Virus record (IMG/VR): IMGVR_UViG_2728369554_000022
Coordinates: 1 to 17,352 of that record
DNA from: a virus
Lineage: Duplodnaviria > Heunggongvirae > Uroviricota > Caudoviricetes
Direction: 5' to 3' (one strand)
Length of the DNA stretch: 17,352 nucleotides
Every line of letters begins with the position of its first letter. Within the stretch, counting starts at the first letter, position 1. The notes under the pieces were generated by a model. The model was given only the letters and a program-made list of their open reading frames with translations. It was not told the origin of the DNA and searched no databases. Shown one piece after another: positions 393 through 17,352 of this stretch. The position numbers and the translations under genes were made by a program.

Positions 393-408
393 TTTTTCTC
401 CTGTAAAT

Positions 409-430
409 AAAAAAGGGCCTCTGTCGGCCC
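409..430 (-). terminator. Hairpin plus T-run immediately upstream of the holin RBS (attenuator or terminator)
   Basis: Minus strand reads GGGCC-gacaga-GGCCC followed by TTTTTT. Confidence 0.4.
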
Positions 431-475
431 GTAAAAAAACACCCCGTCAAAGGCACCCGCAGATACCTTTTGTGT

Positions 476-519
476 GGTGTTATCTGGTGTTTTCTGGTGT
501 TTTCTGGTGTGGTGTGTGC
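476..519. repeat. Tandem ~10-bp repeat (TGGTGTTTTC-like, 3 to 4 units)
   Basis: tggtgttatc / tggtgttttc / tggtgttttc / tggtgtggtgtgtg read directly from the sequence. Confidence 0.7.
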
Positions 520-568
520 AGGACACAGATGTGAAAAAGGTCCGCTGGTACGAACCCTGTATATGGAT

Positions 569-594
569 AAAAAAATGCCCGTCAGGAGACGGGC
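569..594 (-). terminator. Rho-independent terminator-like hairpin
   Basis: Minus strand: GCCCGTC-tcct-GACGGGC followed by ATTTTTTT. Confidence 0.45.
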
Positions 595-643
595 CAGAGC
601 ATTCATCGTGTAGTAATAGAATTATATTTATAATGGTCGCCAC

Positions 644-720
644 CAGAATGAGTCGTCAACCTATAAAGCCATCCTGGCTTACTGTACGTGTGCGCATGGA
701 ACAGGTAACGACTCATTCTG
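644..720. repeat. Perfect 13-bp inverted repeat with 51-bp spacer
   Basis: cagaatgagtcgt (644-656) and acgactcattctg (708-720) are exact reverse complements. Confidence 0.7.
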
Positions 721-895
721 CTAACGACGTTTACAAGTAATAATCACATACCATTATGTAATACAAAAAAAGCAGCACTGAAACTGTAACCGTTCAGATA
801 TTACAGCATGAAGAAAAACAATAGTACCTACAAAGCTGTTCTCCGCGAAAATTCGCCAGTGCTGATAAAGCTATGCCTCGTTTGTTTTACAGGAG

Positions 896-967
<72 letters not shown>

Positions 968-970
968 ATA

Positions 971-1046
<76 letters not shown>

Positions 1047-1658
1047 GTTGGTTCCTCGGGAGTGAGATGAGATGCCCCGATACATAATGTATCATTCCCT
1101 CGGAACCACAAAAATAATACTAATAAATAATCAGGATGCAATATTTACCAACTATGTAATTGTAAATTTGTTTGAATAAAAAATTACTAAACACGCCATA
1201 TCGCCCCTCTAAAAAAGGGGGGCGTAATAATATAAGTGATACTAAGCATCACATTACTAAATACATTGTATTAAGCTGGCGACCCGATGCGTAATCCCTT
1301 GATATTAAAAACTCCAAACAAAATCAGAATGCCATCTGAATACACAAAAAGCTGGCTTCACACCACCCTGTATGTGAACGCAGAACTCATCACCCCACGC
1401 GCTTTCGCAGCCAGTACACAACCTGTGTCAAACGCTGGCAGATGAACAATGAAACTGCCAGCACGGTCACCTATCTTAGTTCGCGTCTCGTATTCTGCTT
1501 GATAATAAGTTTCCCGTTCTTCTCTTATTGTGCATTTTTCAGTTTATCTGTCAGTAGCATTTTGACATACCAATAATTCCTGTCGAGAAAATCAGTGAGC
1601 TAAAAAACCGTATTCACAGCCTCGGGCACGTTTAACGTACCGCACCACTTTTCGGGCG

Positions 1659-1685
1659 TAAAAAAACCCACATTAAGCGGGTTTT
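1659..1685 (-). terminator. Weak hairpin plus U-run downstream of the Q-like gene (tR'-like candidate)
   Basis: Minus strand: AAAACCC-gcttaatgt-GGGTTTT then further T residues. Only 3 GC pairs in the stem. Confidence 0.3.
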
Positions 1686-1765
1686 CAGGTGTCCATGTCT
1701 GCTATACGCCTCGTGATACAGCTTTACGAAGCGTACCAAAATTGAAGCAGTTTGTACGTAAAAAA

Positions 1766-2308
1766 TCAAGCCATTTTTTGAGCAAATGATTCTCGCATGG
1801 GAATGTATAGCGCATACTCAGCAACAGCCAACCAATTAGCAATTCGCTTTTCGCATGTGCTAAAACACCACTCTGGGTGTGCATCATTTAGCAATTCAGC
1901 CATTTTTCGCTTAGTCATCCCCCGCCCCTCATAGCGTTGCCGGAGAATACAAATCAATCCCGGATGATCCGCCATAACTTCGCCAATAACTCTGTCGATT
2001 ATTAATGCCTCTGAATCGGCACAATGTGCCAGCCAGCTCTTTTGCTTGCCGTTAATCATATCCCGCAAAAAAGCCTCAAGTTCAGGCTTGTCCAGACCTG
2101 CTTTTTTCATCCTCCGGAGCACCTCGTTAATTGCCGTTTTCGTCAATTTTTTGGATGCCAACAACTGATTGAACATATTTCCTGACCTGCCACCGCCAAT
2201 ATACGACCAGCGCCCCCACATACGCAGTTTGCCCTGAATCCAGACACTTTCCAGCGTGGCGAGACGAAGGTGTTCTCCGCTTTTTCCTGTATTCGTTGGG
2301 TAAATCAC
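1766..2308 (-). CDS. Late antiterminator Q candidate (Q82/QuuD-like), start uncertain
   Basis: GTG at 2308 overlaps the upstream stop (GTGA) with AAGGAGGG 7 nt upstream; alternative ATGs at 2221 and 2176. LRMWGRW motif recalls the LERWGAW motif of QuuD from memory. Last gene before the tRNA/lysis leader. Confidence 0.45.
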   Translation of the reverse strand: MIYPTNTGKSGEHLRLATLESVWIQGKLRMWGRWSYIGGGRSGNMFNQLLASKKLTKTAINEVLRRMKKAGLDKPELEAFLRDMINGKQKSWLAHCADSEALIIDRVIGEVMADHPGLICILRQRYEGRGMTKRKMAELLNDAHPEWCFSTCEKRIANWLAVAEYALYIPMRESFAQKMA

Positions 2309-2595
2309 AAATATCCCTCCTTTCTCCAGATTTCTTGTGTGCGAAAAACACCTTCTGCATGCATCAGGCGTAATTCTTCTTTGGTGTAATCGCTGGTTTT
2401 TAGCCGCCCGTCGATTAGATCGTGGCATGAGCTACAGGCAATCGCCGCCTGCATATCGTGTGGTTTTGTCGCTATTCCGCACGTTCCCGCCAGTCGGTAA
2501 TGCGCCAGCACAGACGTTTCCGGATCGTGATTGCAGTAGCCAGGAATTCTGACGGTGCACATCTGCCCCCGCGCCGCTTTACGTAAATCCACCAT
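2305..2595 (-). CDS. ybcO: YbcO-like putative nuclease (DUF1364 family), 96 aa
   Basis: ATG at 2595 overlaps upstream stop (TAATG). Pattern DLRKAARG..C.VRIPG.CN..PETSVLAH..CSSCHD matches recalled DLP12 YbcO; same length. Confidence 0.55.
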   Translation of the reverse strand: MVDLRKAARGQMCTVRIPGYCNHDPETSVLAHYRLAGTCGIATKPHDMQAAIACSSCHDLIDGRLKTSDYTKEELRLMHAEGVFRTQEIWRKEGYL

Positions 2596-3194
2596 TACGC
2601 AAACTCCAGCAGCTGCGCGGCCACATTTTCGACTTGTTCCGGAGAGGAAAATTTACGGAACAGAATCCAGTTCCACAGCACATTCAGAACAGATTTATAA
2701 ACCTGCTGAAACTCGGTTTCGTCCATATTCGCAAAAGCGATGGATTTCGCCCGACGCCCATGGCTACCGTCCGGATAAAAATGTTCGGTGTAAAATCCAG
2801 CCTGAATGGTTACCCACTCGCGAAAAGCCTCAAACGACTTTAGCAATGCCGTATCCCGGGTTCTGCGAGTCGCAACGGTGTTAAGGTATTGCTCTGCAGC
2901 ATCACTAAGGGCTGGCGTATGTTCCCGACCTACTGATTCGCACAGGAAATCAACGAAACCGGACACCAGTTCTCGTTCGCGAGGCGTGATCACCCCACCG
3001 ACCGGAGTCCAGTAATCGAATCCCAGTTGCAGGAGTTTGAAAAAACGCTTGTGGAATGCGTAGTTACGCACACGCTTAAAGTCTGCGTGTATCCACTCAC
3101 CTATTTTGATTTGATGCAAAAAATCGCAACTCTCCGGCGTCGCCGGGAGAAGTAATCCGGAAGAGGTTTGTTTGACCAGTTGTATATGCGCCAT
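2595..3194 (-). CDS. nin-region phage protein of unknown function (possibly DUF1367 family), 199 aa
   Basis: ATG at 3194 with GGAGA upstream; the track's 3206 start is TTG. Family assignment is a recollection only. Confidence 0.45.
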   Translation of the reverse strand: MAHIQLVKQTSSGLLLPATPESCDFLHQIKIGEWIHADFKRVRNYAFHKRFFKLLQLGFDYWTPVGGVITPRERELVSGFVDFLCESVGREHTPALSDAAEQYLNTVATRRTRDTALLKSFEAFREWVTIQAGFYTEHFYPDGSHGRRAKSIAFANMDETEFQQVYKSVLNVLWNWILFRKFSSPEQVENVAAQLLEFA

Positions 3195-3253
3195 TGCTGT
3201 CTCCAATGGCGCTGTAGGTTGCCAGTTGTTCAGGCTGGCTTACGAATTATAAC

Positions 3254-3427
3254 TCATTCCCGAATCACCTTGAAACCGAGCCTTTCAAGATATTCAATGA
3301 ATGCCTCGATAGATAAAATTACATGATTATCAGGGATTAACGTTGCGTAGATAACTTCCCCATTCTCAACGCGCACAGCAAAGAGGCCATTTTCACTAAA
3401 AATTTCACGTAATTCTTCAATTTTCAT
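3254..3427 (-). CDS. Small hypothetical protein (57 aa), absent from the ORF track
   Basis: ATG at 3427 with AAGGA 8 nt upstream, TGA at 3256..3254; translates to MKIEELREIFSENGLFAVRVENGEVIYATLIPDNHVILSIEAFIEYLERLGFKVIRE. Confidence 0.4.
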   Translation of the reverse strand: MKIEELREIFSENGLFAVRVENGEVIYATLIPDNHVILSIEAFIEYLERLGFKVIRE

Positions 3428-3547
3428 CAACAGAATCCTTCCAGATAAATAGCACCCCCCTGTTCGGGGTCCATCCCTCTTCTCCCTGCGCGCTACTTAA
3501 GTATTTTTGATTCTATTCCGGCATCGTCCATAACTTCAAACGTATTG

Positions 3548-3579
3548 AAAATAAAAACAAAAACCCGCCGAAGCGGGTT
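3548..3579 (-). terminator. Rho-independent terminator of the hok transcript
   Basis: Minus strand: AACCCGC-ttcg-GCGGGTT followed by TTTGTTTTTATTTT. Confidence 0.65.
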
Positions 3580-3647
3580 AAGTGCGGGTGCGTTGAAGAT
3601 GCCTGACACATCATAGGCGGCGAGGGATTTCTCCCTCGCCTGGTCTC

Positions 3648-3803
3648 TTACTCCTCAGGTTCGTAAGCTGTGAAGACAGCGACCTCCGTCTGGCCGGTTC
3701 GGATTCGTACCTCGCAGAGGTCTTTCCTCGTTACCAGTGCCGTCACTATGACGGTTAAACAGATGACGATCAGGACGATTAACATCGCCTTTTGCTGCTT
3801 CAT
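3648..3803 (-). CDS. hokD: Hok/Gef-family type I toxin (51 aa)
   Basis: MKQQKAMLIVLIVICLTVIVTALVTRKDLCEVRIRTGQTEVAVFTAYEPEE, near-identical to recalled HokD/RelF; AAGGAGA upstream of ATG 3803. In-frame upstream ATG at 3860 gives a 70-aa mok-like extension. Confidence 0.8.
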   Translation of the reverse strand: MKQQKAMLIVLIVICLTVIVTALVTRKDLCEVRIRTGQTEVAVFTAYEPEE

Positions 3804-3975
3804 AGCCTGCTTCTCCTTGCCTTTCGGCACGTAAGAGGCTAACCTACATTTGTGAGACATAGATTGGGCCTCAGATTAATGTTAAGCGTCTTGCAGGACG
3901 CGTAATGTTAACTGGGGCTTTTCTCTATCTGCCTTTGGTGTTCATGCCCGAGGCAGATAGCCTCAAGCACCCGCA
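3804..3975. promoter_or_regulatory. hok leader with candidate antisense (Sok-like) region and structured elements
   Basis: Direct repeat TAATGTTAA (3876-3884, 3903-3911) flanking hairpin GCGTC-ttgcag-GACGC; 10-bp stem CTATCTGCCT/AGGCAGATAG at ~3937-3972. Sok promoter not defined. Confidence 0.35.
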
Positions 3976-4093
3976 GCAATTCTACTTAACTCTCCTTTTC
4001 CCGCAAACCGTTTTTATCCCCAGCGGCAAATCGAATACACCACCAGCGCCACCGCCATCGCAATTCCTACCGTGGTGAATGCATCAGGCCGGG

Positions 4094-4798
4094 TCATTGA
4101 TTCACCTCCTGCGGCGGTTCTGGTAGCGGCATCCAGTGAGTTGAGCTCTCTACTTCGACGCCGTCTTTGTCCACAAAAGCCATCTTATTCCCGCCACGAG
4201 TGGGGCAAAAAACCTTATCCCAGGAACCGGGGAATATATTCCCGAGATCATCGAGAAGAATCACATCGCAATATTCAGCAGGAACTGCATCACTACAGCT
4301 TATCCAGCCAGCCGGAGTTCCCGGAGAGCTGGTTGACGTTTCCGAGATTTCCCGAAAATTGTTGGTTGACGAATTCTTACTTTCCCGAAAGTTTTCGGCC
4401 TGAAGCATGGCGACACGGCAGGCGTTCCAGCCATCAGCATATGTTTCAGTTACACCGTCGAGATGGCAGGTAAGCAAATCCATTTCATCAGGCACTACCA
4501 TCGCTGGCGGCGCTGCGTAAAGCGGTGTTATTTCTGCCCGAAAATCACCTACTTTATGCAGTCGCACCCACCGTTCGATTTCTGCTTTGTCAGAATTCAT
4601 AAGGGTGAACGTATTACATTCATGGTTAATTTGCGTGAAGGTTGCCTTCCACGCCACCGGCTCTGCTTCCAGTGATGCCAGTGCAATTTTGAATAACTCG
4701 CCCTCTACCTGCGCCATCCCTGAATTTGGGTGGCATTTCGCAATCGCTATTTTTAATTTGGCTTCTTCGATTAATTGCTCTTTGGTTAATTCAGTCAT
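4094..4798 (-). CDS. Hypothetical phage protein (234 aa), C-terminus resembles DUF551
   Basis: ATG at 4798. C-terminal WIS.SD..P and THWMPLPEPP pattern recalls DUF551 from memory. Confidence 0.5.
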   Translation of the reverse strand: MTELTKEQLIEEAKLKIAIAKCHPNSGMAQVEGELFKIALASLEAEPVAWKATFTQINHECNTFTLMNSDKAEIERWVRLHKVGDFRAEITPLYAAPPAMVVPDEMDLLTCHLDGVTETYADGWNACRVAMLQAENFRESKNSSTNNFREISETSTSSPGTPAGWISCSDAVPAEYCDVILLDDLGNIFPGSWDKVFCPTRGGNKMAFVDKDGVEVESSTHWMPLPEPPQEVNQ

Positions 4799-4928
4799 TT
4801 TTCATTACCGCCCTTTCAGGCGGCCTCCTGATGTTCTGAGGGTGCAGAAATCCCTCCGGTTAAGGATTTAATAAAATTCACTTCTGATTTAAATTTTCAG
4901 TATTTTGTTGTCAGGTGGTTTATCGCCT

Positions 4929-5240
4929 TTATGCTTCAGTCTTATTTCTCAGCCATACACAAACAGGACCATCTTCAGTGTCATGAATGGAACCAATGAA
5001 CCAGCCTTCACCTTCCGGGCGCTCCGGTTTCCAGGAGGCAATATCGGGACCATCTGCGTCCAGATTAAAATCATCTTCATCCATAGTTCTGATGGTCCAT
5101 TGAAGATTATTTTCCTCCATCCATGCGTTAAACTCTTCCGTTGAAATATGTTCTCTACCATCACAGAATTTTTCATATTCAGGATGCGTCCAGCAGCCAT
5201 ATTCATCACGTACTACTGGTATTTCTTTAATTTCATTCAT
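4929..5240 (-). CDS. Highly acidic small phage protein (103 aa), function unknown
   Basis: ATG at 5240 with GGGAGA upstream; ~25% D+E, Trp-rich; stop overlaps next gene. Confidence 0.5.
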   Translation of the reverse strand: MNEIKEIPVVRDEYGCWTHPEYEKFCDGREHISTEEFNAWMEENNLQWTIRTMDEDDFNLDADGPDIASWKPERPEGEGWFIGSIHDTEDGPVCVWLRNKTEA

Positions 5241-5487
5241 TTCTGTTCTCCCACGTTTTCAGACTTTCACCACAGAACGGACAAAATGAAACCCGCACTG
5301 GTAATTTAGAAAATTCACCGGAACGCAACATCACCAAATCAGGGTCGCGAGTTAAATTCTCATTCCAGATTTTGTATATCAGCAGACCTTTTCGCGTCGT
5401 GTATTCAGCATCATGCTCAAGGGCTTTTGCCAGTACCGCACATGGTTCTATCTGATTGCTATTAACCTGACATTTTGATTCGCTCAC
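5233..5487 (-). CDS. Small Cys-containing protein (84 aa), possible zinc ribbon
   Basis: GTG at 5487 overlaps upstream TGA (GTGA) with AGGAGG upstream; Cys at 6, 16 and a CPFCG motif. Confidence 0.45.
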   Translation of the reverse strand: MSESKCQVNSNQIEPCAVLAKALEHDAEYTTRKGLLIYKIWNENLTRDPDLVMLRSGEFSKLPVRVSFCPFCGESLKTWENRNE

Positions 5488-5906
5488 AGCATCACCTCCT
5501 GAAATTCCCCCTGATAAAACGCCAGCACTCGCTGCATAACCTCACTCTTCCGGCACTCGCGACAGATTATGTTCTGACGCCTGTCGTAGCGGCGTATTTC
5601 TCCGTCAGGTAATGACCTGATAAGGTCCGGATCAACCACAGCCGTTTTCTTCACCTTTGCCCTTGAGAGTTTTTTGCGGGCGTTTTGCCAGTCCTTACGG
5701 GCCTGTTCAGAGGGAAATAACCCGTAGCCAGAGTTGTATACATCACCACTAGCAACCAGCTCTCTGGCGAGAACACTCATCAGATATCTTGTCGCACCTG
5801 TTTTCGCTTCCAGTTGCCGTAACGTCTCGCGCCCACTCCGGCGTACTAGCTCAACAACCTGCCCTTTAATTTTTTCTCGCTCTTCCTGTGTAAATACTTT
5901 TGCCAT
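5484..5906 (-). CDS. Hypothetical phage protein (141 aa) with winged-helix-like N-terminus
   Basis: ATG at 5906 with GGGGAGG upstream; track start at 5972 is TTG without RBS. Confidence 0.5.
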   Translation of the reverse strand: MAKVFTQEEREKIKGQVVELVRRSGRETLRQLEAKTGATRYLMSVLARELVASGDVYNSGYGLFPSEQARKDWQNARKKLSRAKVKKTAVVDPDLIRSLPDGEIRRYDRRQNIICRECRKSEVMQRVLAFYQGEFQEVML

Positions 5907-5922
5907 AAGCCCTCCCCAGGAA

Positions 5923-6684
5923 TCACTTTTCCGACACAATACGACTGGAGGAATCAACAATCTGTCGAACAATATCCCGGTGCTTATTCAGCTCCCGCAG
6001 CGCGGCGCAGACACGCTCCCACTTCTGGACATGACTTTTCGCCCGACGCAGTTCGCGGTTTGCCATATGCAGCGATGGTAAAACCAGGTCATCCGCTTGC
6101 GTTTCGGCGAACGGTGGCAACGACTGCACAATATCCGCCACAGTTTCTGTTTTAATATCTTCCTGTGTTGCAGCTTCCTGTACTGGTAACGCAACACCGG
6201 CTGGCTGAGGAAAGGCTTTACCATCAGTTTCCGCTACCGATGCCGCTTTCGGCTCTGCTGGTAAATTACCGCCCGGCATGCAGTAACGAAATTTACCGTT
6301 CTGATTAACACGAATCAGACGACCTTTGCTGATTGCCATTGCCAGCGTTGAAGCCACTTTGCGGGATGTTGTACCGAACAGCGTAGCCAGTTCATCCGCC
6401 GTTTGTGGTCCGCGTTGTTCAATCGTCGCGGTTAAATCGCACTCTGAGATTTTCGCTACTGTCGCCGTGCTGGTTTCTTCCGGCTGTTCTTCTGGCGCTG
6501 GCTGTTCCTGCTGAACGTTGTTATCAGCCACACGCCAGGTGTATGCGCTTTTATCAACGAAGCCAGCCTTTTTAAGTTCCCACAGCTCATTCAGCACTTC
6601 TTCACGACTGATATCAAGTCGCGCAGCCAGCTCTACCGACGTGGCTTTTCCCATCGCTTTCAGTGCGTCAAAAACAGTCTCCAT
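5923..6684 (-). CDS. Phage protein with two winged-helix-like segments (DUF1627-like), 253 aa
   Basis: ATG at 6684 with GGGAGG upstream; acidic linker; sits downstream of the DnaC-like gene. Confidence 0.5.
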
Positions 6685-6704
6685 AAATTTCCTCCCGGTA
6701 AAAA

Positions 6705-7451
6705 TTACTTTTCAATACCTGGCTGACCAACATTCGGGCGCCAGCTCTCCCAGTTAAAATTCACCCAGCGCCCGCCGTTCATGGTCATGCGATCCATAAT
6801 CCGCTCGCCGAGCAATGTTTTCATGGCCTCATAGTTCAGGTTTGTCAGCATTCCCACGCTACGCATCGACGCTGTCCGTCGATCAATAATCTGGTGCAGT
6901 ACCACCTGCTCGTTTTTCGTCTCGCGCTGAATGCCAATTTCATCAAGAACCAGCAGATCCACTTCGCACAGTTCCCGCAAAAATTTTTCGCCTGACTGCC
7001 CGTCGTCATAGCTGGCGTGCAGGGCGCTCATAACATCAGCCACGGTAACCACAATCACTGTCTGACCGTCTTTCAGCAGGCGATTCCCGATAGCTGCCGC
7101 TAAGTGATTCTTCCCGGTACCAGGTTTTCCGCTGAACGCAAAATTTGTACACCCGGTCATCAGTTCATCGGCGATGGATTTCGCCTGGCTTAACGCGTAT
7201 CGCTGGCCGTCGTTCTGCACCTGGTAATTCGCAAACGAGCATTTACGGTGCAACGGCTGGATGCCTGAGCGATTCAGAATTTTTTCCACCCGCAACTGGC
7301 GATTCAGGCGGTTGATCTCCTCGCTACGTTTCTGGCCTTCAGCAAGTTGCCACTCGCGCCACTCCGCAACCGTTCTGAATGGGGCGGTTACATGTGGTGG
7401 GGTCAGTCTGCGGATACGCTCCAGAACGCCTCCTGTCGCAATATTTTTCAT
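6705..7451 (-). CDS. DnaC-like replicative helicase loader (AAA+ ATPase, YdaV-like), 248 aa
   Basis: Walker [16 protein letters not shown] and Walker B LLVLDEIG; position after the initiator gene. Confidence 0.85.
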
Positions 7452-7457
7452 GGTCTG

Positions 7458-8252
7458 TTACCCCCTGAAGCCTGGCGGGATCGCACTGTCCGGCAACGAG
7501 ACGGTGTTAACCTGTCGGAGCAACGTCTCAGGCCGAACACCTTTCGGCGCGAACAGGCCCTGGTATTCATTGGCGATGCTGTGTCGAATCACCTGCTCAG
7601 GTGTAAAACCCTGCTGACGGAATTTTTCCAGTTCCCGTATCGCCCCGTTAGCGCCCTGCTCCGTTCGAATCGGTTTTCGCAATGCCTGTCTGAACCGGAC
7701 CCACTCATGCCAGAGTGTTTCCGGCAACCAATCGGGCAGCTCAATAGCCTCCGGCTCGAATTTTTTAGACGCTCGTTTTTGGCGAGGGGGATTTAGGGGG
7801 AGATCAGTATTTAGATCTTCCTCTTCCTCTTCCTCTTCCTCTGGTAGCGCTTTTTGATCCGTTTGTGTAACGCCGGCAGCGTTACCTTTTCGTTTCAGTT
7901 CACGTATTTTTGTAACTCGCTCGTTTGTAACCGCCCGTTTTTTAGAGCTTTTTCCGTTATGGCGTTCAAAGTTAGGTAGAGAAAGCCCAACGTCATTTTC
8001 GACCAGCCATCCAACCTGAATTAACGCATCAGCAAAACCAGCCATAAAAGTGATGCGATCTATTGCACTTTTTGTAACGCCGCGAGCGTTACAATCTGCA
8101 TTACCGTCTATCATTTGTTGATCCGCCCATGCCCAGAAGCGAATAACCTTCCCTAATGCGGCATCTGGATCAATATTCAGAATCTCAGCAAGCCTGAATA
8201 TTTCCGGCTTATCCGGCGTAATAACCTCGAGCTTTATCCAGTTTGAAGCCAT
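7458..8252 (-). CDS. Replication initiator / replisome organiser (YdaU-like, lambda O analogue), 264 aa
   Basis: ATG at 8252 with AAGGTG upstream; poly-Glu linker; contains two of the three 19-bp palindromes; immediately precedes the DnaC-like gene. Confidence 0.5.
   Translation of the reverse strand: MASNWIKLEVITPDKPEIFRLAEILNIDPDAALGKVIRFWAWADQQMIDGNADCNARGVTKSAIDRITFMAGFADALIQVGWLVENDVGLSLPNFERHNGKSSKKRAVTNERVTKIRELKRKGNAAGVTQTDQKALPEEEEEEEEDLNTDLPLNPPRQKRASKKFEPEAIELPDWLPETLWHEWVRFRQALRKPIRTEQGANGAIRELEKFRQQGFTPEQVIRHSIANEYQGLFAPKGVRPETLLRQVNTVSLPDSAIPPGFRG
7817..7842. repeat. Hexanucleotide tandem repeat (CTCTTC)n encoding a poly-Glu tract
   Basis: cttcctcttcctcttcctcttcctct encodes EEEEEEEE on the minus strand. 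Confidence 0.8.
7867..7885. repeat. 19-bp palindrome GTAACGC-N5-GCGTTAC, copy 1 (inside initiator gene)
   Basis: gtaacgccggcagcgttac read directly. Confidence 0.8.
8074..8092. repeat. 19-bp palindrome GTAACGC-N5-GCGTTAC, copy 2 (inside initiator gene)
   Basis: gtaacgccgcgagcgttac, with flanking TT/AA extending the symmetry. Confidence 0.8.
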
Positions 8253-8265
8253 TTGTTTTCACCTT

Positions 8266-8284
8266 GTAACGCTCGCAGCGTTAC
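8266..8284. repeat. 19-bp palindrome GTAACGC-N5-GCGTTAC, copy 3 (intergenic, upstream of initiator RBS)
   Basis: gtaacgctcgcagcgttac, located between the ydaT-like stop and the initiator start. Confidence 0.8.
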
Positions 8285-8329
8285 ATTTAACTGATACCGA
8301 ACAAAACAATCCGGCACGATTAATTTCAA

Positions 8330-8752
8330 TCAATGCACTACGACAGAATCACCGGGCGACCCACCACCGCTGAAATGTGCTTTCCGGTAAACGGCCTGGA
8401 CTGCATCATCATGCGCATCAATTGCCGTACTCAACGCTTCCTGCGCCGCCAGTAATGCACGGCGTTCCAGGGTATCGAAGATGCAGAGTCGGTGACGCAG
8501 CTCGCGCGGAAGAATTGCCAGAACCGCAGGGATCAGTGTCTGAATTTTTTCCCTTTGCGCTTTCGTTTCACCTTTTAACCAACGGTGATAGATGTTCTGC
8601 TGATTATTCCAGTCCTTGCCTGGTACCAGGGGCAATTCGCCGCCCCCCTGGCGCAGATATTCTTCAGTAATTGCATTGGCTACCCATGCCTGCCCTTTTT
8701 CAGCGGCCAGGGCTAACAGCACTGATTCGATGTGCTCATGCCTGATTTTCAT
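8330..8752 (-). CDS. ydaT: YdaT-like protein (140 aa)
   Basis: ATG at 8752 with AGGAG upstream; length and position after the YdaS-like gene match the Rac ydaS-ydaT pair. Confidence 0.6.
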   Translation of the reverse strand: MKIRHEHIESVLLALAAEKGQAWVANAITEEYLRQGGGELPLVPGKDWNNQQNIYHRWLKGETKAQREKIQTLIPAVLAILPRELRHRLCIFDTLERRALLAAQEALSTAIDAHDDAVQAVYRKAHFSGGGSPGDSVVVH

Positions 8753-9011
8753 GAATCAACTCCTGTGCATTTTGTGTGTTAGCCTTACATCCAACAGGTA
8801 AACCATCGGTCGGATTCGGGTAGATATCAGGCCGGAGTTCATGAGGTGTAACCTCGAAATTCGTAGCCTCTGCGATACGCAATACCTTTTCAGGGCTTAA
8901 CTGACTACGTCCAGTAGCAACGAGGCTAATCATTGATTGCGAACAACCAGCCAGCGCGGCCAAACAAGACTGTCGTACACGATTTTTTTTCAAATATTCA
9001 TCTAATGTCAT
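8736..9011 (-). CDS. ydaS: YdaS-like Cro-type HTH regulator (91 aa)
   Basis: ATG at 9011 with AAGGTGA upstream (track start at 9038 is TTG); HTH-like segment; divergent from the repressor gene. Confidence 0.55.
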   Translation of the reverse strand: MTLDEYLKKNRVRQSCLAALAGCSQSMISLVATGRSQLSPEKVLRIAEATNFEVTPHELRPDIYPNPTDGLPVGCKANTQNAQELIHENQA

Positions 9012-9115
9012 AAGGGTCACCTTAGTAATGTTCGCCAAAATATTAACTATACTAATTTAAATGATCAATACTTATATCAGTTTGAGATTATGAGCTGTGT
9101 TCATAAGATGGTGGT
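9012..9115. promoter_or_regulatory. Divergent promoter/operator region between ydaS-like and racR-like genes
   Basis: 104-bp AT-rich intergenic region with palindrome TTATGA-gctgtgt-TCATAA (~9090-9108) and TGATCA (9064-9069). Confidence 0.4.
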
Positions 9116-9580
9116 ATGAGAAGAAAACGCGAAGAAATCGCATCGCCAGAAGCTACGCAGCGTCTACGCGGAATCTGGGATGCAAAAAAAAGAGAGCTCA
9201 AATTGACTCAGGAGCTTGCTGCCGAGCTAATGGGCTTTGAGACGCAATCTACGGTTAGCCACTATCTCAACGGAAAGGCTCCACTTAACACTGATGCGGC
9301 ATTAAAATTCGCAGTATTGCTAAGAGTTAAGCCTGAAGACTTGAGGCCTGATTTAGCTGATCTGATGAATTACGTCCGTTCCTCTGGAACTTATGACGAA
9401 AGTTTCGAAGGCGAAGGGTGGCGGATGGTTAACAAGCAACAAGCTGATTTACTGGATCTTTTTGATATCCTCCCCGAATCAGAAAAAGCAAAACTAATCG
9501 AAAGGCTTAAAGGCCAGAATGAACTCTACAAAGAAGCGTTTGAAAATATGCTGGCAGCTCAGAAACGCATAAAGAAATAG
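9116..9580 (+). CDS. racR: RacR-like prophage repressor (HTH), 154 aa
   Basis: HTH-like LTQELAAELMGFETQSTVSHYLNG; divergent from ydaS-like; followed by a strong terminator. Confidence 0.6.
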   Translation: MRRKREEIASPEATQRLRGIWDAKKRELKLTQELAAELMGFETQSTVSHYLNGKAPLNTDAALKFAVLLRVKPEDLRPDLADLMNYVRSSGTYDESFEGEGWRMVNKQQADLLDLFDILPESEKAKLIERLKGQNELYKEAFENMLAAQKRIKK

Positions 9581-9600
9581 CCCCCACTACCTCGTAACTA

Positions 9601-9626
9601 AACCGCCATCCCTGGCGGTTTTTTTG
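9601..9626 (+). terminator. Rho-independent terminator after racR
   Basis: CCGCCA-tccc-TGGCGG followed by TTTTTTT. Confidence 0.7.
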
Positions 9627-9697
9627 TCCCCTGCGCCCCCATCGCCTTACTTTTTTATCAAAAAAAACACTAAAATTTTCATTATGATAGTACATTT

Positions 9698-9728
9698 TTA
9701 TCAACAAAATGCATATTTATGTTGATCA
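9698..9728. promoter_or_regulatory. Candidate operator/promoter upstream of ydaG (early-left, PL-like position)
   Basis: Inverted repeat TTATCAACA-N13-TGTTGATCA in an AT-rich region ~90 bp upstream of ydaG. Confidence 0.3.
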
Positions 9729-9816
9729 TTAATATGAATATAACTAATATTATTGCAGAAGCAGCACGGCGCTGTAGGTTTTAGTTCCGCCACCCGGCGT
9801 TAAGGGGAGAGATAAG

Positions 9817-9951
9817 ATGGTGCATTACGAAGTAGTTCAGTATTTGATGGATTGTTGCGGTATCACTTACAACCAGGCTGTGCAGGCTTTACGCAGCAAC
9901 GACTGGGATCTCTGGCAGGCAGAAGCCTCTATCCGCAACAACAAAATGTGA
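9817..9951 (+). CDS. ydaG: YdaG-like small protein (44 aa)
   Basis: ATG at 9817 with AGGGGAGAG upstream; MVHYEVVQYLMDCCGITYNQAVQALRSNDWDLWQAEASIRNNKM; size and position match recalled Rac ydaG. Not in ORF track. Confidence 0.5.
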   Translation: MVHYEVVQYLMDCCGITYNQAVQALRSNDWDLWQAEASIRNNKM

Positions 9952-9961
9952 GGTGCGAAAA

Positions 9962-10114
9962 ATGCAAAAAATCGACCTCGGCAATAACGAATCCCTGGGG
10001 TGCGGCGTGTTCCCCAACCAGGATGGAACGTTCACTGCCATGACTTATACCAAAAGCAAGACATTCAAAACTGAAACGGGCGCACGTCGCTGGCTTGCCA
10101 GAAATACTGGCTAA
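9962..10114 (+). CDS. ydaF: YdaF-like small protein (50 aa)
   Basis: ATG at 9962 with GAGGTG upstream; MQKIDLGNNESLGCGVFPNQDGTFTAMTYTKSKTFKTETGARRWLARNTG. Not in ORF track. Confidence 0.5.
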   Translation: MQKIDLGNNESLGCGVFPNQDGTFTAMTYTKSKTFKTETGARRWLARNTG

Positions 10115-10295
10115 TCCATTATTTGGATTAATTCAATATTCTCGCTGTAGGGGTATAGCAGAAACCACCAAAGCCCGGAGGTGGTGAAATAAAACCGGGC
10201 ACAACACGAAGGCGCATTTCCGATATCCATAAAGAGTCGGTTTTGTCTGTTAAATTTAAATGGTGGGAGTGCGCCTCCGGTTGTAAATAACGACA

Positions 10296-10360
10296 TTGCT
10301 GTGTGTAGTCTTGGCGGCATCAGTTTTTTCTTGAAGTTCGGCTGATGTCCGCCCCTTTTT
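10296..10360 (+). ncRNA. DicF-like sRNA candidate with intrinsic terminator, upstream of kilR
   Basis: TTGGCGGCATCAGTTTT ... CTGATGTCCGCCCC-TTTTT; stem GGCGGCATCAG/CTGATG(T)CCGCC plus U-run; resembles recalled DicF core. Boundaries approximate. Confidence 0.45.
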
Positions 10361-10525
10361 AAAGTGAATTTTGTGATGCGGTGAATGCGGCTAAGCGCAC
10401 GCGGAACAGTTAAAAGCATCAGTGTTATGGGTGGATTATCCGGCGTTAATTGTTAACTGGTTAACGTCACCTGGAGGCACCAGGCACCGCATCAACAAAG
10501 TTCATTTGTAAAAATGGAGATAATT

Positions 10526-10747
10526 ATGATTGCACATCACTTCGGAACTGAGGAAATACCACGTCAGTGTGTGACTCCTGGCGATTATGTTCTTCATGAA
10601 GGCCGGACATATATTGCCTCGGCAAACAATATTAAAAAGCGAAAACTTTATATTCGTAACCTGACCACAAAAACATGCATTACTGACTGCATGATTAAAG
10701 TCTTCCTCGGTCGTGATGGTTTACCTGTAAAGGCGGAGTCATGGTGA
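10526..10747 (+). CDS. kilR: KilR-like cell-division inhibitor (73 aa)
   Basis: ATG at 10526 with GGAGA upstream; size and synteny with Rac kilR; sequence recognised from memory. Confidence 0.7.
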
Positions 10748-10917
10748 TGACTAAGAAAATAAAATGTGCTTACCACCTTTGCAATAAAGAAGTTGAAAAA
10801 AGCAAAAGCATTACAAAACCACTTCATTTCATGCGTGGAGTTATCCCAACGACGGAAATGAAAAAATATTGTAGTGAAATATGTGCCGAAAAAGACCAGA
10901 TGGCACACGAACTTTAA
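10747..10917 (+). CDS. ydaE: YdaE-like Cys-rich small protein (56 aa)
   Basis: ATG overlaps kilR stop (TGATG); four Cys; not in ORF track as a separate ORF. Confidence 0.6.
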   Translation: MTKKIKCAYHLCNKEVEKSKSITKPLHFMRGVIPTTEMKKYCSEICAEKDQMAHEL

Positions 10918-10991
10918 TTAACTGACTATTCGAAACTGAATTTATGCCAGCAATGGCAGGGATTCACTCAACCTTAATTAAGGAGAAAAAC

Positions 10992-11237
10992 ATGATTACC
11001 AATTATGAAGCCACTGTTGTAACTACCGATGACATTGTTCACGAGGTTAATCTGGAAGGAAAGCGTATTGGCTACGTGATTAAAACAGAAAATAAAGAAA
11101 CCCCATTCACTGTGGTTGATATCGACGGTCCATCAGGCAACGTAAAAACACTTGATGAAGGTGTCACAAAAATGTGCCTGGTTCACATCGGAAAGAATCT
11201 GCCCGCAGAAAAAAAGCCGGATTTCTGGCAACTCTGA
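10992..11237 (+). CDS. racC: RacC-like protein (81 aa from this start)
   Basis: ATG at 10992 with AGGAGA 5 nt upstream; upstream in-frame ATGs at 10944/10953 lack an RBS. Confidence 0.55.
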   Translation: MITNYEATVVTTDDIVHEVNLEGKRIGYVIKTENKETPFTVVDIDGPSGNVKTLDEGVTKMCLVHIGKNLPAEKKPDFWQL

Positions 11238-11367
11238 TTGCAATGAAATTAAACGGTGAAATCTGAAAGAAATAGCCTGCGTATGGCGCAGGCTATGAAC
11301 AGTGTGTATCCGGCAAGATCATTCACTGAACAAAACGAATTTTAATCTGAGTTGAGGTTAAAAAACA

Positions 11368-14040
11368 ATGAGCACAAAACCACTCTTCCTGTTACGGAAA
11401 GCGAAAAAATCATCCGGTGAACCTGACGTCGTCTTGTGGGCAAGCGACGATTTTGAATCGACCTGTGCCACTCTGGACTACCTGATCGTTAAGTCAGGTA
11501 AAAAACTGAGCAGCTATTTTAAAGCTGTTGCCACGAATTTTCCTGTCGTTAATGACCTTCCCCCTGAAGGTGAGATCGATTTTACCTGGAGTGAACGCTA
11601 TCAACTCAGCAAAGACTCCATGACCTGGGAACTAAAACCGGGAGCAGCGCCAGACGACGTTCACCACCATGATAATGCTCAGGAAACCAAAGAACTGGCG
11701 GGGGGCCAGGAAGAAAACGCGCAGGCAGACGCCCACGGGGATTGCCAGGATTGCGAAGTCTCTGTAGCCACTTTGCGGTTCACACAGCGTCTTCTGCACA
11801 TTTTTACGTATGCGGCCGGGGATCGGAAATACCTGCATCATGCCACCCGTGAACAACGCGAACACATCACTGCTCTTGAGATGGATCAGGAAAACAGCTA
11901 TGTCCAGAATCTGCTGTTGGCCATACGCGGCATGGCAGAACCGACAACTCTGGATAATGCCGCCCTGCTCCGCCTGACTGATGCAATTAAGGCAGTTTTC
12001 TCTATCACGAAAAAACATCAGCCCTATGAATTTAAGAATTTCATTTCAGCCTGGCTGGATACCGAACACATTGATCGCGGTCTTCTGACAAAAGAATGGC
12101 GAAAAGGGAATCGTGTTTCACGCATCACTCGCACGGCTTCCGGTGCTAATGCTGGCGGCGGGAACCTCACCGATCGCGGCGAAGGTTTCGTCCACGATCT
12201 GACGTCACTGGCGCGCGATGTAGCCACTGGCGTACTGGCCCGTTCAATGGACGTGGACATTTATAACCTTCATCCTGCACACGCTAAACGCATTGAGGAA
12301 ATTATCGCTGAAAATAAACCGCCCTTTTCTGTTTTCCGCGACAAATTCATCACCATGCCTGGCGGGCTGGATTATTCCCGCGCCATCGTGGTTGCGTCCG
12401 TGAAAGAAGCACCAATTGGGATCGAGGTCATCCCCGCGCACGTCACTGAATATCTGAACAAAGTACTGACTGAAACCGATCATGCCAACCCTGATCCGGA
12501 AATCGTGGATATTGCCTGCGGTCGCTCCTCTGCCCCGATGCCGCAGCGTGTAACAGAAGAAGAAAAACAGGATGATGAAGAAAAACCGCAACCATCTTGC
12601 GCAATGGCAGATGAACAGGCAACGGCTGAAACAGTGGAACCGGATGCAACTGAACATCATCAGGACACGCAGCCGCTGGATGCTCAGTCACAGGTAAATT
12701 CTGTTGATGCGAAATATCAGAAACTGCGGGCAGAACTCCATGAAGCCCGGAAAAACATTCCGCCCAAAAATCCTGTCGATGCAGACAAATTACTGGCTGC
12801 CTATCGCGGAGAATTTGTTGCAGGGATTAGCGACCCGAATGATCCGAAATGGGTTAAAGGGATCCAGACCCGCGATTCTGTGTACCAGCATCAGCCAGAA
12901 ACGGAACAGAACGACCGAAAATCGGAACAAAACGGCCAAAATGCGCGACAAAATGAACCAGAAGCGCAACAGGAACTGGAAAAAGTCTGCAATGCCTGCG
13001 GTCAGTCTGGTGGAGATAACTGCCCTGATTGTGGCGCGGTGATGGGCGACACCACATATCAGGAAACCTTTAATGAAGAAAATCTGGATGAATCTCAGGA
13101 AAAAGATCCGGAGGAAATGGAAGGCCCTGAACATCCGCACAATGAGAATGCTGGCAGCGATCCGCATCGCGATTGCAGTGATGAAACTGGCGAAGTCGCA
13201 GATCCCGTAATCGCAGGAGACATAGAGCCTGGTATTTATTACGGAATTTCGAATGAGAATTACCACGCGGGTCCCGGTGTCAGTAAGTCTCAGCTCGACG
13301 ACATTGCTGATACTCCGGCGCTGTATTTGTGGCGTAAAAATGCCCCAGTGGACACCACAAAGACAAAAACGCTCGATTTAGGAACCGCTTTCCACTGCCG
13401 TGTACTTGAACCGGAAGAATTCAGTAACCGCTTTATCGTGGCACCTGAATTTAACCGCCGTACAACCGCCGGAAAAGAAGAAGAGAAAGCGTTTCTGATG
13501 GAATGCGCAAGCACAGGAAAAACGGTTATCACTGCCGAAGAAGGCCGGAAAATTGAACTCATGTATCAGAGCGTTATGGCTTTGCCGCTGGGTCAATGGC
13601 TTGTTGCAAGCGCCGGACACGCTGAATCATCAATTTACTGGGAAGATCCTGAAACAGGAATTTTGTGTCGGTGCCGTCCGGACAAAATTATTCCTGAATT
13701 TCACTGGATCATGGACGTGAAAACCACAGCGGATATTCAACGATTCAAAACGGCTTATTACGACTACCGCTATCACGTTCAGGATGCATTCTACAGTGAC
13801 GGTTATGAAGCACAGTTTGGTGTGCTGCCAACTTTCGTTTTTCTGGTTGCCAGCACAACTGTTGAATGCGGACGTTACCCGGTTGAGATTTTCATGATGG
13901 GCGAAGAAGCAAAACTGGCAGGCCAGCAGGAATATCACCGCAATCTGAGGACCCTGGCTGACTGCCTGAATACCGATGAATGGCCAGCTATTAAAACGTT
14001 ATCACTGCCCCGCTGGGCTAAGGAGTATGCAAATGACTAA
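11368..14040 (+). CDS. recE: RecE exodeoxyribonuclease VIII (890 aa)
   Basis: N-terminus [41 protein letters not shown] recognised as RecE; long acidic central region; C-terminal nuclease domain. Confidence 0.9.
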
Positions 14041-14842
14041 GCAACCACCTATCGCAAAAGCCGATCTGCAAAAAACCCAGGGAAACCGTGCACCAGCAGC
14101 AGTAAAAAATAACGACGTGATCAGCTTTATTAATCAGCCATCAATGAAAGAGCAACTGGCAGCAGCTCTCCCACGCCATATGACGGCTGAACGAATGATA
14201 CGTATCGCCACTACAGAAATTCGTAAGGTTCCGGCGCTAGGAAACTGTGACACCATGAGTTTTGTCAGTGCGATCGTTCAGTGTTCACAGCTCGGCCTTG
14301 AGCCAGGTAGCGCCCTCGGCCACGCATATTTACTGCCTTTTGGTAATAAAAACGAAAAGAGCGGTAAAAAGAACGTCCAGCTAATCATTGGTTATCGCGG
14401 CATGATTGATCTGGCTCGCCGTTCTGGTCAAATCGCCAGCCTGTCAGCCCGTGTTGTCCGTGAAGGTGACGTGTTTAGTTTTGAATTTGGCCTTGATGAA
14501 AAGTTAATACACCGCCCGGGAGAAAACGAAGATGCACCAGTGACCCACGTCTATGCTGTCGCAAGACTGAAAGACGGAGGGACTCAGTTTGAGGTTATGA
14601 CACGCAAACAGATTGAGATTGTACGCAACCAGAGTAAAGCAGGTAATAACGGGCCGTGGGTAACTCACTGGGAAGAAATGGCAAAAAAAACGGCTATTCG
14701 TCGCCTGTTCAAATATCTGCCCGTATCAATTGAGATCCAGCGTGCAGTATCAATGGATGAAAAGGAACCACTGACAATCGATCCTGCAGATTCCTCTGTA
14801 TTAACCGGAGAATACAGTGTAATCGATAATTCAGAGGAATAA
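14033..14842 (+). CDS. recT: RecT single-strand annealing recombinase (269 aa)
   Basis: ATG at 14033 overlaps recE 3' end, AAGGAG upstream; [16 protein letters not shown] recognised. Confidence 0.9.
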
Positions 14843-14849
14843 TTCAGCC

Positions 14850-14868
14850 TGGCGGTGTAATGCACCGC
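14850..14868 (+). other. GC-rich hairpin between recT and ralR (possible attenuator)
   Basis: GGCGGTG-taat-GCACCGCC; T-run begins ~12 nt downstream, so not a canonical terminator. Confidence 0.3.
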
Positions 14869-14898
14869 CAACTTGAAATATTTTTTATGAGAAAAATT

Positions 14899-15093
14899 AT
14901 GAGATATGACAATGTTAAACCATGTCCATTTTGTGGTTGTCCATCAGTAACGGTGAAAGCCATTTCAGGATATTACCGAGCGAAGTGTAACGGATGCGAA
15001 TCCCGAACCGGTTATGGTGGAAGTGAAAAAGAAGCACTCGAAAGATGGAATAAACGAACCACTGAAAATATTAATGGAGGCTTTCATGTATAA
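14899..15093 (+). CDS. ralR: RalR/Lar restriction-alleviation protein (64 aa)
   Basis: MRYDNVKPCPFCGCPSVTVKAISGYYRAKCNGCESR..., zinc-ribbon-like, recognised as Rac Lar. Confidence 0.8.
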   Translation: MRYDNVKPCPFCGCPSVTVKAISGYYRAKCNGCESRTGYGGSEKEALERWNKRTTENINGGFHV

Positions 15094-15274
15094 AATTACC
15101 GCTACAATTGAAAAGGAAGGTGGCACTCCTACTAACTGGACAAGATATTCAAAATCTAAACTAACGAAATCGGAATGCGAAAAAATGCTCTCAGGGAAAA
15201 AAGAAGCAGGCGTTTCCAGAGAGCAGAAAGTAAAACTGATAAATTTTAATTGCGAGAAACTTCTGTCATCGTGA
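15086..15274 (+). CDS. ydaC: YdaC-like small protein (62 aa from this start)
   Basis: ATG at 15086 with GGAGG 5 nt upstream, overlapping ralR stop; synteny with Rac ydaC. Confidence 0.55.
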   Translation: MYKITATIEKEGGTPTNWTRYSKSKLTKSECEKMLSGKKEAGVSREQKVKLINFNCEKLLSS

Positions 15275-15380
15275 GTTGCATTATATCCAAATCAGAACTT
15301 CATAGCTGATTATTAAAAATCAACCACACCCGCCAGTATTTTGTATATTTACTGGCGGTCATATCGTAAGAGGTATGGCA

Positions 15381-15662
15381 ATGAATCTTGTGACACTCAA
15401 AACCTGGGGAAGACTCAGATATCCGGATAACCCACCATCAATATCAACGCTGAGACGATGGGCAAGGAATGGAAACATTTATCCTGCACCTGAACTACAC
15501 GGGAGGAGTTACAGGGTGGTTCCGGAGGCTTTCTATATCAACCCAAATAAGGTTGATACCGATATAACACACCACCAGCCTAATGGGCGACAAGGGAGAG
15601 ACAGTCCGTTAATGGAGAAGTTAAAACATGCAGCGGAAAAAATACGATCCCAATTTGCCTAG
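15381..15662 (+). CDS. Excisionase (Xis-like)
   Basis: AAGAGG upstream of ATG 15381; resembles lambda Xis N-terminus; 3' end overlaps int start as in lambda. Confidence 0.7.
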   Translation: MNLVTLKTWGRLRYPDNPPSISTLRRWARNGNIYPAPELHGRSYRVVPEAFYINPNKVDTDITHHQPNGRQGRDSPLMEKLKHAAEKIRSQFA

Positions 15663-16704
15663 AAATTTAACATATCGAAGGAGAGACAAAGCATATTACT
15701 GGCGCAACCCTCTCACGAAAGAAGAATTTACACTAGGTAAAATTTCAAGAAGAGATGCAGTAGCGCAGGCAATTGAAGCAAATCATTATATATACAAAAA
15801 CTACTCTCCTGCTGCCTTAATTGAAAAACTTAAAGGGTTCGACTCATTTACTATGGCAGACTGGATTGAACGTTACAAAACGATTCTTATAAGGAGAAAA
15901 GTGTCCAGAAATACTTATAAAATTCGGGTAAATCAACTGGAGACAATAAAAGAAAAATTAGGAGGGATTTTACTGACAGAAATAACCACTCGCCATATTG
16001 CCGAGTTTCTTGATTTGTGGATTGAAGGAGGGAAAAACACGATGGCAGGATCAATGCGTTCTGTGTTATCTGATATGTTCCGCGAGGCCATTGTTGAAGG
16101 ACGTATATCTCAAAATCCAGTAACGCCAACAAGAGCACCGAAAATAGTAGTTACAAGAGAACGGCTGAAACTAAAGACATACAACTGCATCAGGGAGGCA
16201 GCAGATCAACTTCCGGCATGGTTCCCATTAGCTATGGATTTAGCCCTTGTAACAGGACAACGTCGCGAAGACATAACGAATATGCGGTTCAGTGATATTT
16301 ATGATGATCGTCTCCACATCAGGCAAATTAAGACAGGAATGATGATTGCTATCCCCCTGTCACTCAGCCTTCCTGTCGCTGGTCTACGGCTTGGTACAGT
16401 AGTTGAACGGTGCCGCCTGGTAAGCCGGGGAGATTATCTAATCAGTGCCGGGATTAGAAAAAACAGCCCTGACGGCAGCATTCACCCGGACGGCCTGACA
16501 AAAAAATTTGTCGCAGCCAGAAAATTAACAGGTATCCAGTTCAGTGAAAACCCACCAACTTTTCACGAGATCAGAAGTCTGGCTGGACGATTGTACAAAG
16601 AAACATGTGGAGAAGAATTTGCTCAGCGTCTACTTGGCCACACATCGGAGAAGACAACAAAAATGTATCTTGATGAGAGAGAAAAAACGTACTTACTGCT
16701 CTGA
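15628..16704 (+). CDS. Lambda-family tyrosine integrase (358 aa)
   Basis: Aligns by eye with lambda Int (N-terminal arm-binding region, [25 protein letters not shown], tyrosine in KMYLDE). Confidence 0.9.
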
Positions 16705-16751
16705 TTTTAACGTAAATGGATTGTTAAATGTATTTTGGTTGTGATATAACC

Positions 16752-16853
16752 AAAAAAGACCGAATACGATTCCTGTATTCGGTCCAGGGAAATGGCTCTT
16801 GGGAGAGAGCCGTGCGCTAAAAGTTGGCATTAATGCAGGCTTAGTTGCCTTGC
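16752..16853 (-). ncRNA. sdsR: SdsR (RyeB) sRNA
   Basis: Minus strand reads GCAAGGCAACTAAGCCTGCATTAATGCC...GACCGAATACAGGAATCGTATTCGGTC-TTTTTT, matching recalled SdsR with its terminator; sigma-S-like -10 TCTATTCTTAA just upstream. Confidence 0.8.
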
Positions 16854-16982
16854 TCTTTAAGAATAGATGACGACGCCAGGTTTTCCAGTTTGCGTGCAAA
16901 ATGGTCAATAAAAAGCGTGGTGGTCATCAGCTTAAATGTTAAAAACCGCCCGTTCTGGTGAAAGAACTGAGGCGGTTTTTTA
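16758..16982 (+). ncRNA. ryeA: RyeA (SraC) antisense sRNA candidate overlapping sdsR; 5' end uncertain
   Basis: Known bidirectional sRNA locus; candidate promoter TTGTTA (16721-16726) and TATAAC (16745-16750); terminator at 16941-16982. Confidence 0.35.
16941..16982. terminator. Bidirectional terminator between RyeA and the yebY-like gene
   Basis: ACCGCC-[CGTTCT-ggtgaa-AGAACT]-GAGGCGGT flanked by A-run and T-run. Confidence 0.6.
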
Positions 16983-17010
16983 TTGGAAATCAAAAGGCTA
17001 TTTTAGGTAA

Positions 17011-17352
17011 TTAACAGAGTTTTTCAGCTCGCTCTATAAACGGTGCCAGACTCATTTTTTCGCCGGGATTGTTAGGATCATCAATCTGAATCACCGAAAT
17101 GGGTTGGGCTTTAGTCTTCCCACTGGCAACTTCCTTTTGTGCGATATCGTTTAAAGGATACTGCACGAGGGTACTTGGGTTAATGACATACAAAGCATTA
17201 CCCGGTCGGCAAGTCAACATCACCTCTTCGCGATTAAACGCCCATTTGTCTTTACCCACTTCAAAACGGCTGACGGTAATCACCTGCGGTGCCGCCAGCG
17301 CAGCTGCAGAACTGGTGAGTAACAGAAACGCCAGAATACTTTTTCTCATCAT
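17011..17352 (-). CDS. yebY: YebY-like secreted protein (DUF2511-like), 113 aa; start codon at window edge
   Basis: Signal peptide [20 protein letters not shown]; adjacency to the sdsR/ryeA locus matches recalled pphA-ryeA/ryeB-yebY arrangement. Confidence 0.5.

Follow-up and report, generated by a model that had tools for sequence, protein, structure and literature searches.

The ydaF-kilR interval of a Rac-like prophage

The 411 bp that separate ydaF from the division inhibitor gene kilR (10115-10525) raise the question of what this stretch encodes and whether, as the original prediction proposed, it carries a DicF-like small RNA (sRNA). The window, which here means the whole stretch of 17,352 nucleotides analyzed (positions 1 to 17,352 of IMG/VR record IMGVR_UViG_2728369554_000022), is a Rac-like lambdoid prophage. 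Its plus strand encodes a racR-like HTH repressor (9116-9580), ydaG (9817-9951) and a ydaF homolog (DUF1391; Pfam PF07151, 98.5 bits; 9953-10114) that forms the left edge of the gap. On the far side lies kilR (10526-10747, plus strand), which encodes a 73-aa FtsZ inhibitor; it appears in the ORF list, its ATG at 10526 is the start of K-12 KilR, and a Shine-Dalgarno GGAG is present at 10516-10519. Downstream of kilR follow ydaE, racC, recE and recT, in that order and on the plus strand, and downstream of recT is ralR with its RalA antitoxin RNA (15092-15270, minus strand). The early-right and late part of the prophage contains a hok/sok-type toxin-antitoxin locus (3798-3972; sok, 117.7 bits) and a tandem pair of tRNA genes (896-1046), both on the minus strand.

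At the right end of the prophage, excisionase and integrase genes are followed by the host SraC/SdsR locus. The integrase region (15628-16704) abuts this SraC/RyeA-SdsR/RyeB sRNA locus (16747-16891), of which both SraC/RyeA and SdsR/RyeB are full-length Rfam matches. Because the integrase adjoins the SraC/SdsR locus, the phage is integrated beside yebY; in K-12 the site is ttcA. Across the gap, the closest complete genome shows 99.3% identity. It has the same gene order and carries its prophage beside yebY; its kilR gene is labelled "kil", and RefSeq annotates nothing between the DUF1391 gene and kil. The RefSeq product name of the Kil protein at locus L195:9412-9633 (NZ_CP080139.1) is "cell division protein FtsZ". 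The same label is used in phage record PQ600364, and it is misleading, as Kil inhibits FtsZ.

Identification of the sRNA as KilS

On the basis of alignment to K-12 kilS, the element at 10263-10360 (plus strand) is the ortholog of the known sRNA KilS, with a 98-nt primary transcript by homology. The K-12 genome (NC_000913.3) annotates ncRNA kilS (b4833) at 1418405-1418502 on the minus strand, between kilR and sieB. Over these 98 nt the window differs by one substitution and two 1-nt indels, and it is collinear throughout, including the TSS region and the terminator. The location agrees as well: the element lies in the ydaF-kilR interval of a Rac-type prophage, on the strand of kilR and in the gene order of K-12. 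In both RNAs the locus 5' of kilR, the orientation relative to kilR, the promoter, the seed, the hairpin and the U-run are alike, while beside the stem the window reads CUU and K-12 reads CCU, the loop of the window copy is shorter by one U and its U-run is preceded by an additional C. The surrounding prophages also differ, the window being without sieB and integrated by yebY/SdsR rather than ttcA. The original prediction stated that K-12 Rac carries sieB in this interval; that is correct, but kilS lies there too and was omitted.

As a new sRNA, then, the candidate does not hold up: it corresponds to KilS, annotated in K-12 Rac and published in 2021, so that the gene is already known. KilS was predicted from Hfq RIL-seq and confirmed by Northern blot in K-12 (Bar et al. 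2021, Front Microbiol, PMC8175672). Supplementary table 6 of that study lists a TSS at 1418502, quoted from Thomason data, and an RNase E site at 1418471 (nt 32), from Clarke data (PMC8175672). The reported RIL-seq partner is yncL, and KilS took part in only 3 RIL-seq interactions with low sRNA scores (0.03-0.15) (PMC8175672), and may therefore be a minor regulator. An expressed, Hfq-associated RNA of about 98 nt has thus been demonstrated by others for K-12 KilS only.

The 74-nt KilS core is about 96% identical to K-12 strains. Of 5426 complete E. coli genomes, 1699 (about a third) carry this core and 4624 contain parts of the whole gap. Among the matches listed from non-reference RefSeq/PGAP genomes, there was no annotated feature beneath the 74-nt core. 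RefSeq/PGAP leaves KilS unannotated there because the KilS-type hairpin falls 7 bits short of the DicF cut-off.

Promoter and terminator

A putative extended -10 promoter of KilS is located at 10248-10256 on the plus strand (TG at 10248-10249, TAAATT at 10251-10256). The KilS TSS, placed by homology to the K-12 TSS at 1418502, is 6 nt downstream of the -10 element. The promoter motif TGTTAAATT is kept in nearly all KilS-type alleles, and we infer that it drives KilS transcription. Upstream of this promoter is an inverted repeat, ACCACC-N9-GGTGGT (10165-10186), which in K-12 is kept between sieB and kilS.

The stem and U-run proposed for the plus strand are indeed present. The sequence GGCGGCATCAG (10313-10323) pairs with CTGATGTCCGCC (10342-10353), and TTTTT follows at 10356-10360. 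For the 73 nt from 10290 to 10362, the fold has an energy of -21.6 kcal/mol (z = -2.8), which 1 of 200 shuffles matched. Folding and allele conservation point to an intrinsic terminator and likely Hfq-binding module at 10313-10360 (plus strand). In 41 distinct alleles, 99.5% of cells in the outer GGCGG/CCGCC stem are paired; overall, 96% of cells are paired, and there is one compensatory pair, C-G to U-A. That only one such pair was found is attributable to the hairpin classes differing in register. Since covariation in the terminator is thin, its support comes from folding within each class: nearly every allele class has a hairpin of -9.6 to -21.2 kcal/mol with a U-run, and a few degenerate alleles are without.

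Relationship to DicF and modularity of the locus

The Rfam DicF model (RF00039) matched 10300-10354 in a search of 551 nt (10050-10600). At E = 1.3e-7 the match is significant, but at 41.1 bits it falls below the gathering score of 48; a scan of the whole window against Rfam at gathering thresholds reported no match in the gap. Alignment with K-12 dicF likewise agrees in part, with a near-identical 3' flank but a different 5' seed, loop and 3' arm. The 165 nt 3' of the U-run are near-identical in Rac (before kilR), in Qin (before dicB) and in phage Tritos, where the RNA at the homologous locus is annotated as DicF. Read as homology, the proposed likeness to DicF is upheld by the covariance-model match, the shared leader and the same place in the early-left operon, just ahead of a gene for a division inhibitor.

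KilS and DicF further share a GGCGG...CCGCC terminator with U-run, and the RNase E-generated mature 5' end of DicF aligns with the RNase E site of K-12 KilS. KilS differs in being without ftsZ complementarity and, in K-12, in having its own mapped TSS directly upstream. The DicF 5' seed UUUCUGGUGACG, which is directed at xylR/pykA, is absent from KilS and has ACAUUGCUGUGUGUAGUC in its place. The 1994 work of Faubladier and Bouche and that of Conter et al. from 1996 reportedly mention Rac.

To survey the locus, an invariant 18-mer just 3' of the U-run was used as an anchor, which yielded 139 homologous loci in Escherichia/Shigella genomes and IMG/VR contigs. Anchor matches outside Escherichia/Shigella were mostly due to chance and were removed by requiring the adjacent motif GGTGAATG[CT]GG. 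DicF-type seeds are found at 93 of the 139 loci and KilS/RprA-type seeds at 35; the remainder comprise class C (7 loci, CAUGUUGAUU type), class D (3 loci, CAUGUGUAGU type) and one other. These seeds are carried on about five hairpin types, nearly all of which keep the GGCGG/CCGCC outer stem and the U-run. Besides the DicF and KilS/RprA types, two seed classes, CAACAACCCAUGUUGAUUACC and CCCAUGUGUAGUCUUU, were noted at the dicF/kilS locus.

Mosaic alleles join the DicF and KilS types. Alleles L161 (L161:6219-6290, minus strand) and L183 (L183:2438-2509, minus strand) combine a KilS seed with a DicF hairpin and score 63.5 and 61.6 bits for DicF, above the gathering score, and L037 (L037:4607-4678, minus strand), in which a KilS-like hairpin carries a DicF seed, reaches 43.5 bits. 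Further alleles are L071:4732-4803 (plus strand) and L128:8951-9022 (minus strand). The mosaic scores indicate that the Rfam DicF cut-off follows hairpin type, and we conclude that KilS is an allele of a broader DicF family. The hairpin that carries the RprA-like seed in L161 and L183 is of the DicF ftsZ type.

A seed identical to RprA

Directly 5' of the terminator stem, KilS nt 33-50 (10295-10312, plus strand) form the seed AUUGCUGUGUGUAGUCUU, which is identical to RprA nt 60-77. The identical run covers 18 of 18 nt, compared to a longest run of 12 nt among 2000 shuffles, and in alleles L161 and L183 it extends to 20 nt. The seed bases are upper-case, that is, highly conserved, in the Rfam RprA consensus. 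The Rfam RprA model (RF00034) gives 29.8 bits against a gathering score of 70 (E = 0.18), a partial match caused by AUUGCUGUGUGUAGUCUU. In place of the ftsZ-targeting sequence of DicF, KilS appears to have acquired this RprA-identical seed. Northern probe 2 for KilS (AGGACTACACACAGCAATGTCGTTATTTAC; supplementary table 3 of Bar et al. 2021) covers the RprA-shared run, and could therefore cross-hybridize with RprA and processed RprA.

By homology to K-12 position 1418471, an RNase E processing site is predicted at 10294-10295 (plus strand), 1 nt before the RprA-identical run, and would yield a short form of about 66 nt. In the minimum free energy fold of full-length KilS, the seed is partly paired with the 5' portion, and processing, at the site mapped in K-12, may therefore be needed for activation. 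Processed RprA consists of the last 47 nt and is active in vivo, and the seed is its 5' single-stranded part (PMC9262595). RprA60-105 is a known species, and RprA nt 60-97 pair with csgD site I (PMC3465796). The two RNAs are thus alike in that the 18-nt run lies directly 5' of the terminator stem and immediately 3' of a processing site. They are unlike in other respects: RprA is a core-genome, Rcs-regulated sRNA, whereas KilS is prophage-borne, is not a family member by covariance model and differs in terminator hairpin and promoter. The 5' part of RprA, which includes its rpoS-activating region, is missing from KilS.

Pairing was predicted with RNAduplex in seed-only runs with shuffles, and all energies given are without target accessibility. 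Runs with full-length sRNAs against 210-276-nt targets gave meaningless end-to-end duplexes and were dropped. The KilS seed is predicted to bind csgD at -103..-81 with -27.3 kcal/mol (z = -3.9; 0 of 100 shuffles as good), the same site Ib that RprA binds, compared to -24.6 kcal/mol for the seed of RprA itself. Pairing with yncL at -42..-16 is predicted at -20.7 kcal/mol (z = -2.0). csgD is absent from the reported K-12 KilS RIL-seq partners. The sequence suggests that the RNA may be processed in this strain, may use this seed and may regulate csgD.

A full-text literature search returned no paper tying KilS to DicF or RprA, an absence that is not proof, and neither the RprA-seed identity nor the modular allele family was found in the searchable literature. 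DicF, RprA and prophages are not mentioned by Bar et al. 2021 (PMC8175672), Rac is not mentioned in the DicF paper, and DicF, KilS and RprA all go unmentioned in a 2026 preprint on Pas/STnc100 RNAs.

A structured leader of kilR

Between the terminator and kilR is a conserved, structured and STnc100-like leader (10361-10525, plus strand), as judged from an Rfam covariance model and RNAalifold. The STnc100 model (RF02076) matches 10344-10533 at 43.8 bits (E = 3e-8), short of its gathering score of 47, and related alleles reach 46.2 bits. For 20 alleles, RNAalifold predicted a structure of -51.3 kcal/mol with 43 pairs, and compensatory changes were seen at 4 of these. Three hairpins lie within a 20-bp long-range helix (10364-10383 with 10485-10505), and a variable cassette is bounded on its 5' and 3' sides by constant blocks. 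This leader is found ahead of three unrelated ORF types, namely kilR, dicB and a third, and it is better conserved than the sRNA before it or the gene after it. A 29-aa GTG ORF within it (10422-10511, plus strand) matches phrog_24763 (unknown function, E = 4e-13); this was rejected as a gene, as the match probably reflects ORF calls on a nucleotide-conserved RNA leader.

The 165-nt leader matches the model of the STnc100/PasD prophage RNAs end to end and has the same multi-hairpin architecture, but it scores below the gathering threshold, lacks its own terminator here and continues into the Shine-Dalgarno sequence of kilR. For the latter two reasons it behaves as a leader and not as a separate sRNA. 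The 20-bp helix begins 3 nt past the terminator and could plausibly be cut by RNase III. DicF is said to be processed from operon transcripts in an RNase III-dependent manner (an observation ascribed to Faubladier and colleagues in 1990), and the leader helix might serve as the RNase III site for DicF-type processing. It is possible that the leader acts as an expression gate for division inhibitors.

Proposed mode of action and alternative explanations

KilS would be transcribed both from its own extended -10 promoter and as part of the early-left operon (racR-like repressor, ydaG, ydaF, KilS, kilR, ydaE, racC and recET). Transcription would end at the GGCGG...CCGCC hairpin and U-run to produce the 98-nt RNA, which RNase E would probably cut near 10294, leaving a form of about 66 nt with AUUGCUGUGUGUAGUCUU as its free 5' end. 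The RNA may then act in trans with Hfq through the seed common to processed RprA, pairing with yncL, its K-12 RIL-seq partner, and, as predicted, with the csgD leader at RprA site Ib. Transcripts that pass the terminator would yield kilR mRNA by way of the structured leader. In K-12, kilR relies for its expression on readthrough, which is normally suppressed with NusG and occurs when NusG is repressed (PMC10798246). We consider it likely that the element is the prophage's KilS copy, an allele of the dicF locus, acting in trans with Hfq via the seed it shares with RprA.

Other explanations of the gap were weighed against this one. The chance that it codes for a protein, whether the 102-aa minus-strand ORF (10111-10419) or a diverged sieB-like gene, is next to nil. 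The ORF is open over its full length, and other alleles have stop-free antisense stretches of 62-106 aa, but it matches no Pfam or PHROG family and alleles do not keep its frame: two 1-nt indels between K-12 and the window shift it (K-12 ...KRADISRTSRKK... versus window ...KRGGHQPNFKKK...), and other alleles open different frames. We judge that it is not a gene, and RefSeq calls none here in the closest genome. A tblastn search of K-12 SieB against the window gave a best E-value of 4.4, and homology with K-12 resumes about 30 nt past the ydaF stop codon, leaving the window without the sieB insert. The original prediction was accurate on both counts, the lack of a credible gene in the gap and the absence of sieB. 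It fared worse in implying DicF function. A functional DicF would repress ftsZ, as well as xylR and pykA, as an antisense RNA and would join KilR in blocking division; the shared locus and scaffold just upstream of a division inhibitor and the RF00039 E-value of 1.3e-7 are what would be expected of it. DicF represses ftsZ via its 3' region and xylR and pykA via its 5' end (PMC5069750), and in KilS the segment that pairs with the ftsZ RBS (PMC5069750) is replaced, the 5' seed is replaced too, and the covariance-model score is below the Rfam gathering threshold. In the control, the 3' part of DicF paired with ftsZ -29..0 at -27.9 kcal/mol (z = -2.2), while the loop and 3' arm of KilS (z = 0.1) and its seed (z = 0.8) paired with ftsZ no better than shuffled sequences. 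Since this pairing is at background level, an ftsZ antisense role is unlikely for KilS. KilS probably does not function as a DicF, and we regard the contrary as very unlikely.

An element that is only a terminator or attenuator of the early-left operon, gating kilR and releasing a short RNA as a by-product without a role in trans, is somewhat less improbable than a functional DicF, yet still unlikely. Faubladier and Bouche (1994), in the statement cited in PMC2681065, describe dicF-like elements as similar to terminators, and the dependence of kilR expression on readthrough when NusG is repressed (PMC10798246) is in keeping with such a role, as are the few RIL-seq partners and low sRNA score of KilS. 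A bare terminator, however, would not be expected to have an 18-nt identity with a functional RprA seed, and both a conserved promoter and this conserved seed lie 5' of the hairpin. The K-12 RNA, moreover, is found in Hfq RIL-seq chimeras and on Northern blots. The terminator role and the sRNA role are not mutually exclusive.

Implications

As an sRNA gene, KilS adds nothing new: it already has an annotation in K-12, and discussion of dicF-like elements goes back to 1994. The Rfam DicF family is narrower and less modular than the real one: an RNA annotated as DicF may carry an RprA-like seed and, conversely, an RNA left unannotated may be a DicF allele. A broader reading, which we put forward tentatively and find slightly easier to doubt than to believe, is that KilS is a prophage-borne mimic of the RprA seed and that dicF/kilS is a modular cassette in which lambdoid prophages shuffle seeds and hairpin modules. 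One conserved scaffold and leader would then carry DicF-type, RprA-type and at least two other seeds on hairpins that do or do not bind ftsZ. Were the RprA-identical seed functional, the prophage would feed the csgD/biofilm circuit independently of Rcs signalling. If the mimic reading is true, processed KilS would duplicate targeting by processed RprA, such as repression of csgD and curli, and in about one third of E. coli strains a prophage promoter could set off part of the Rcs/RprA output.
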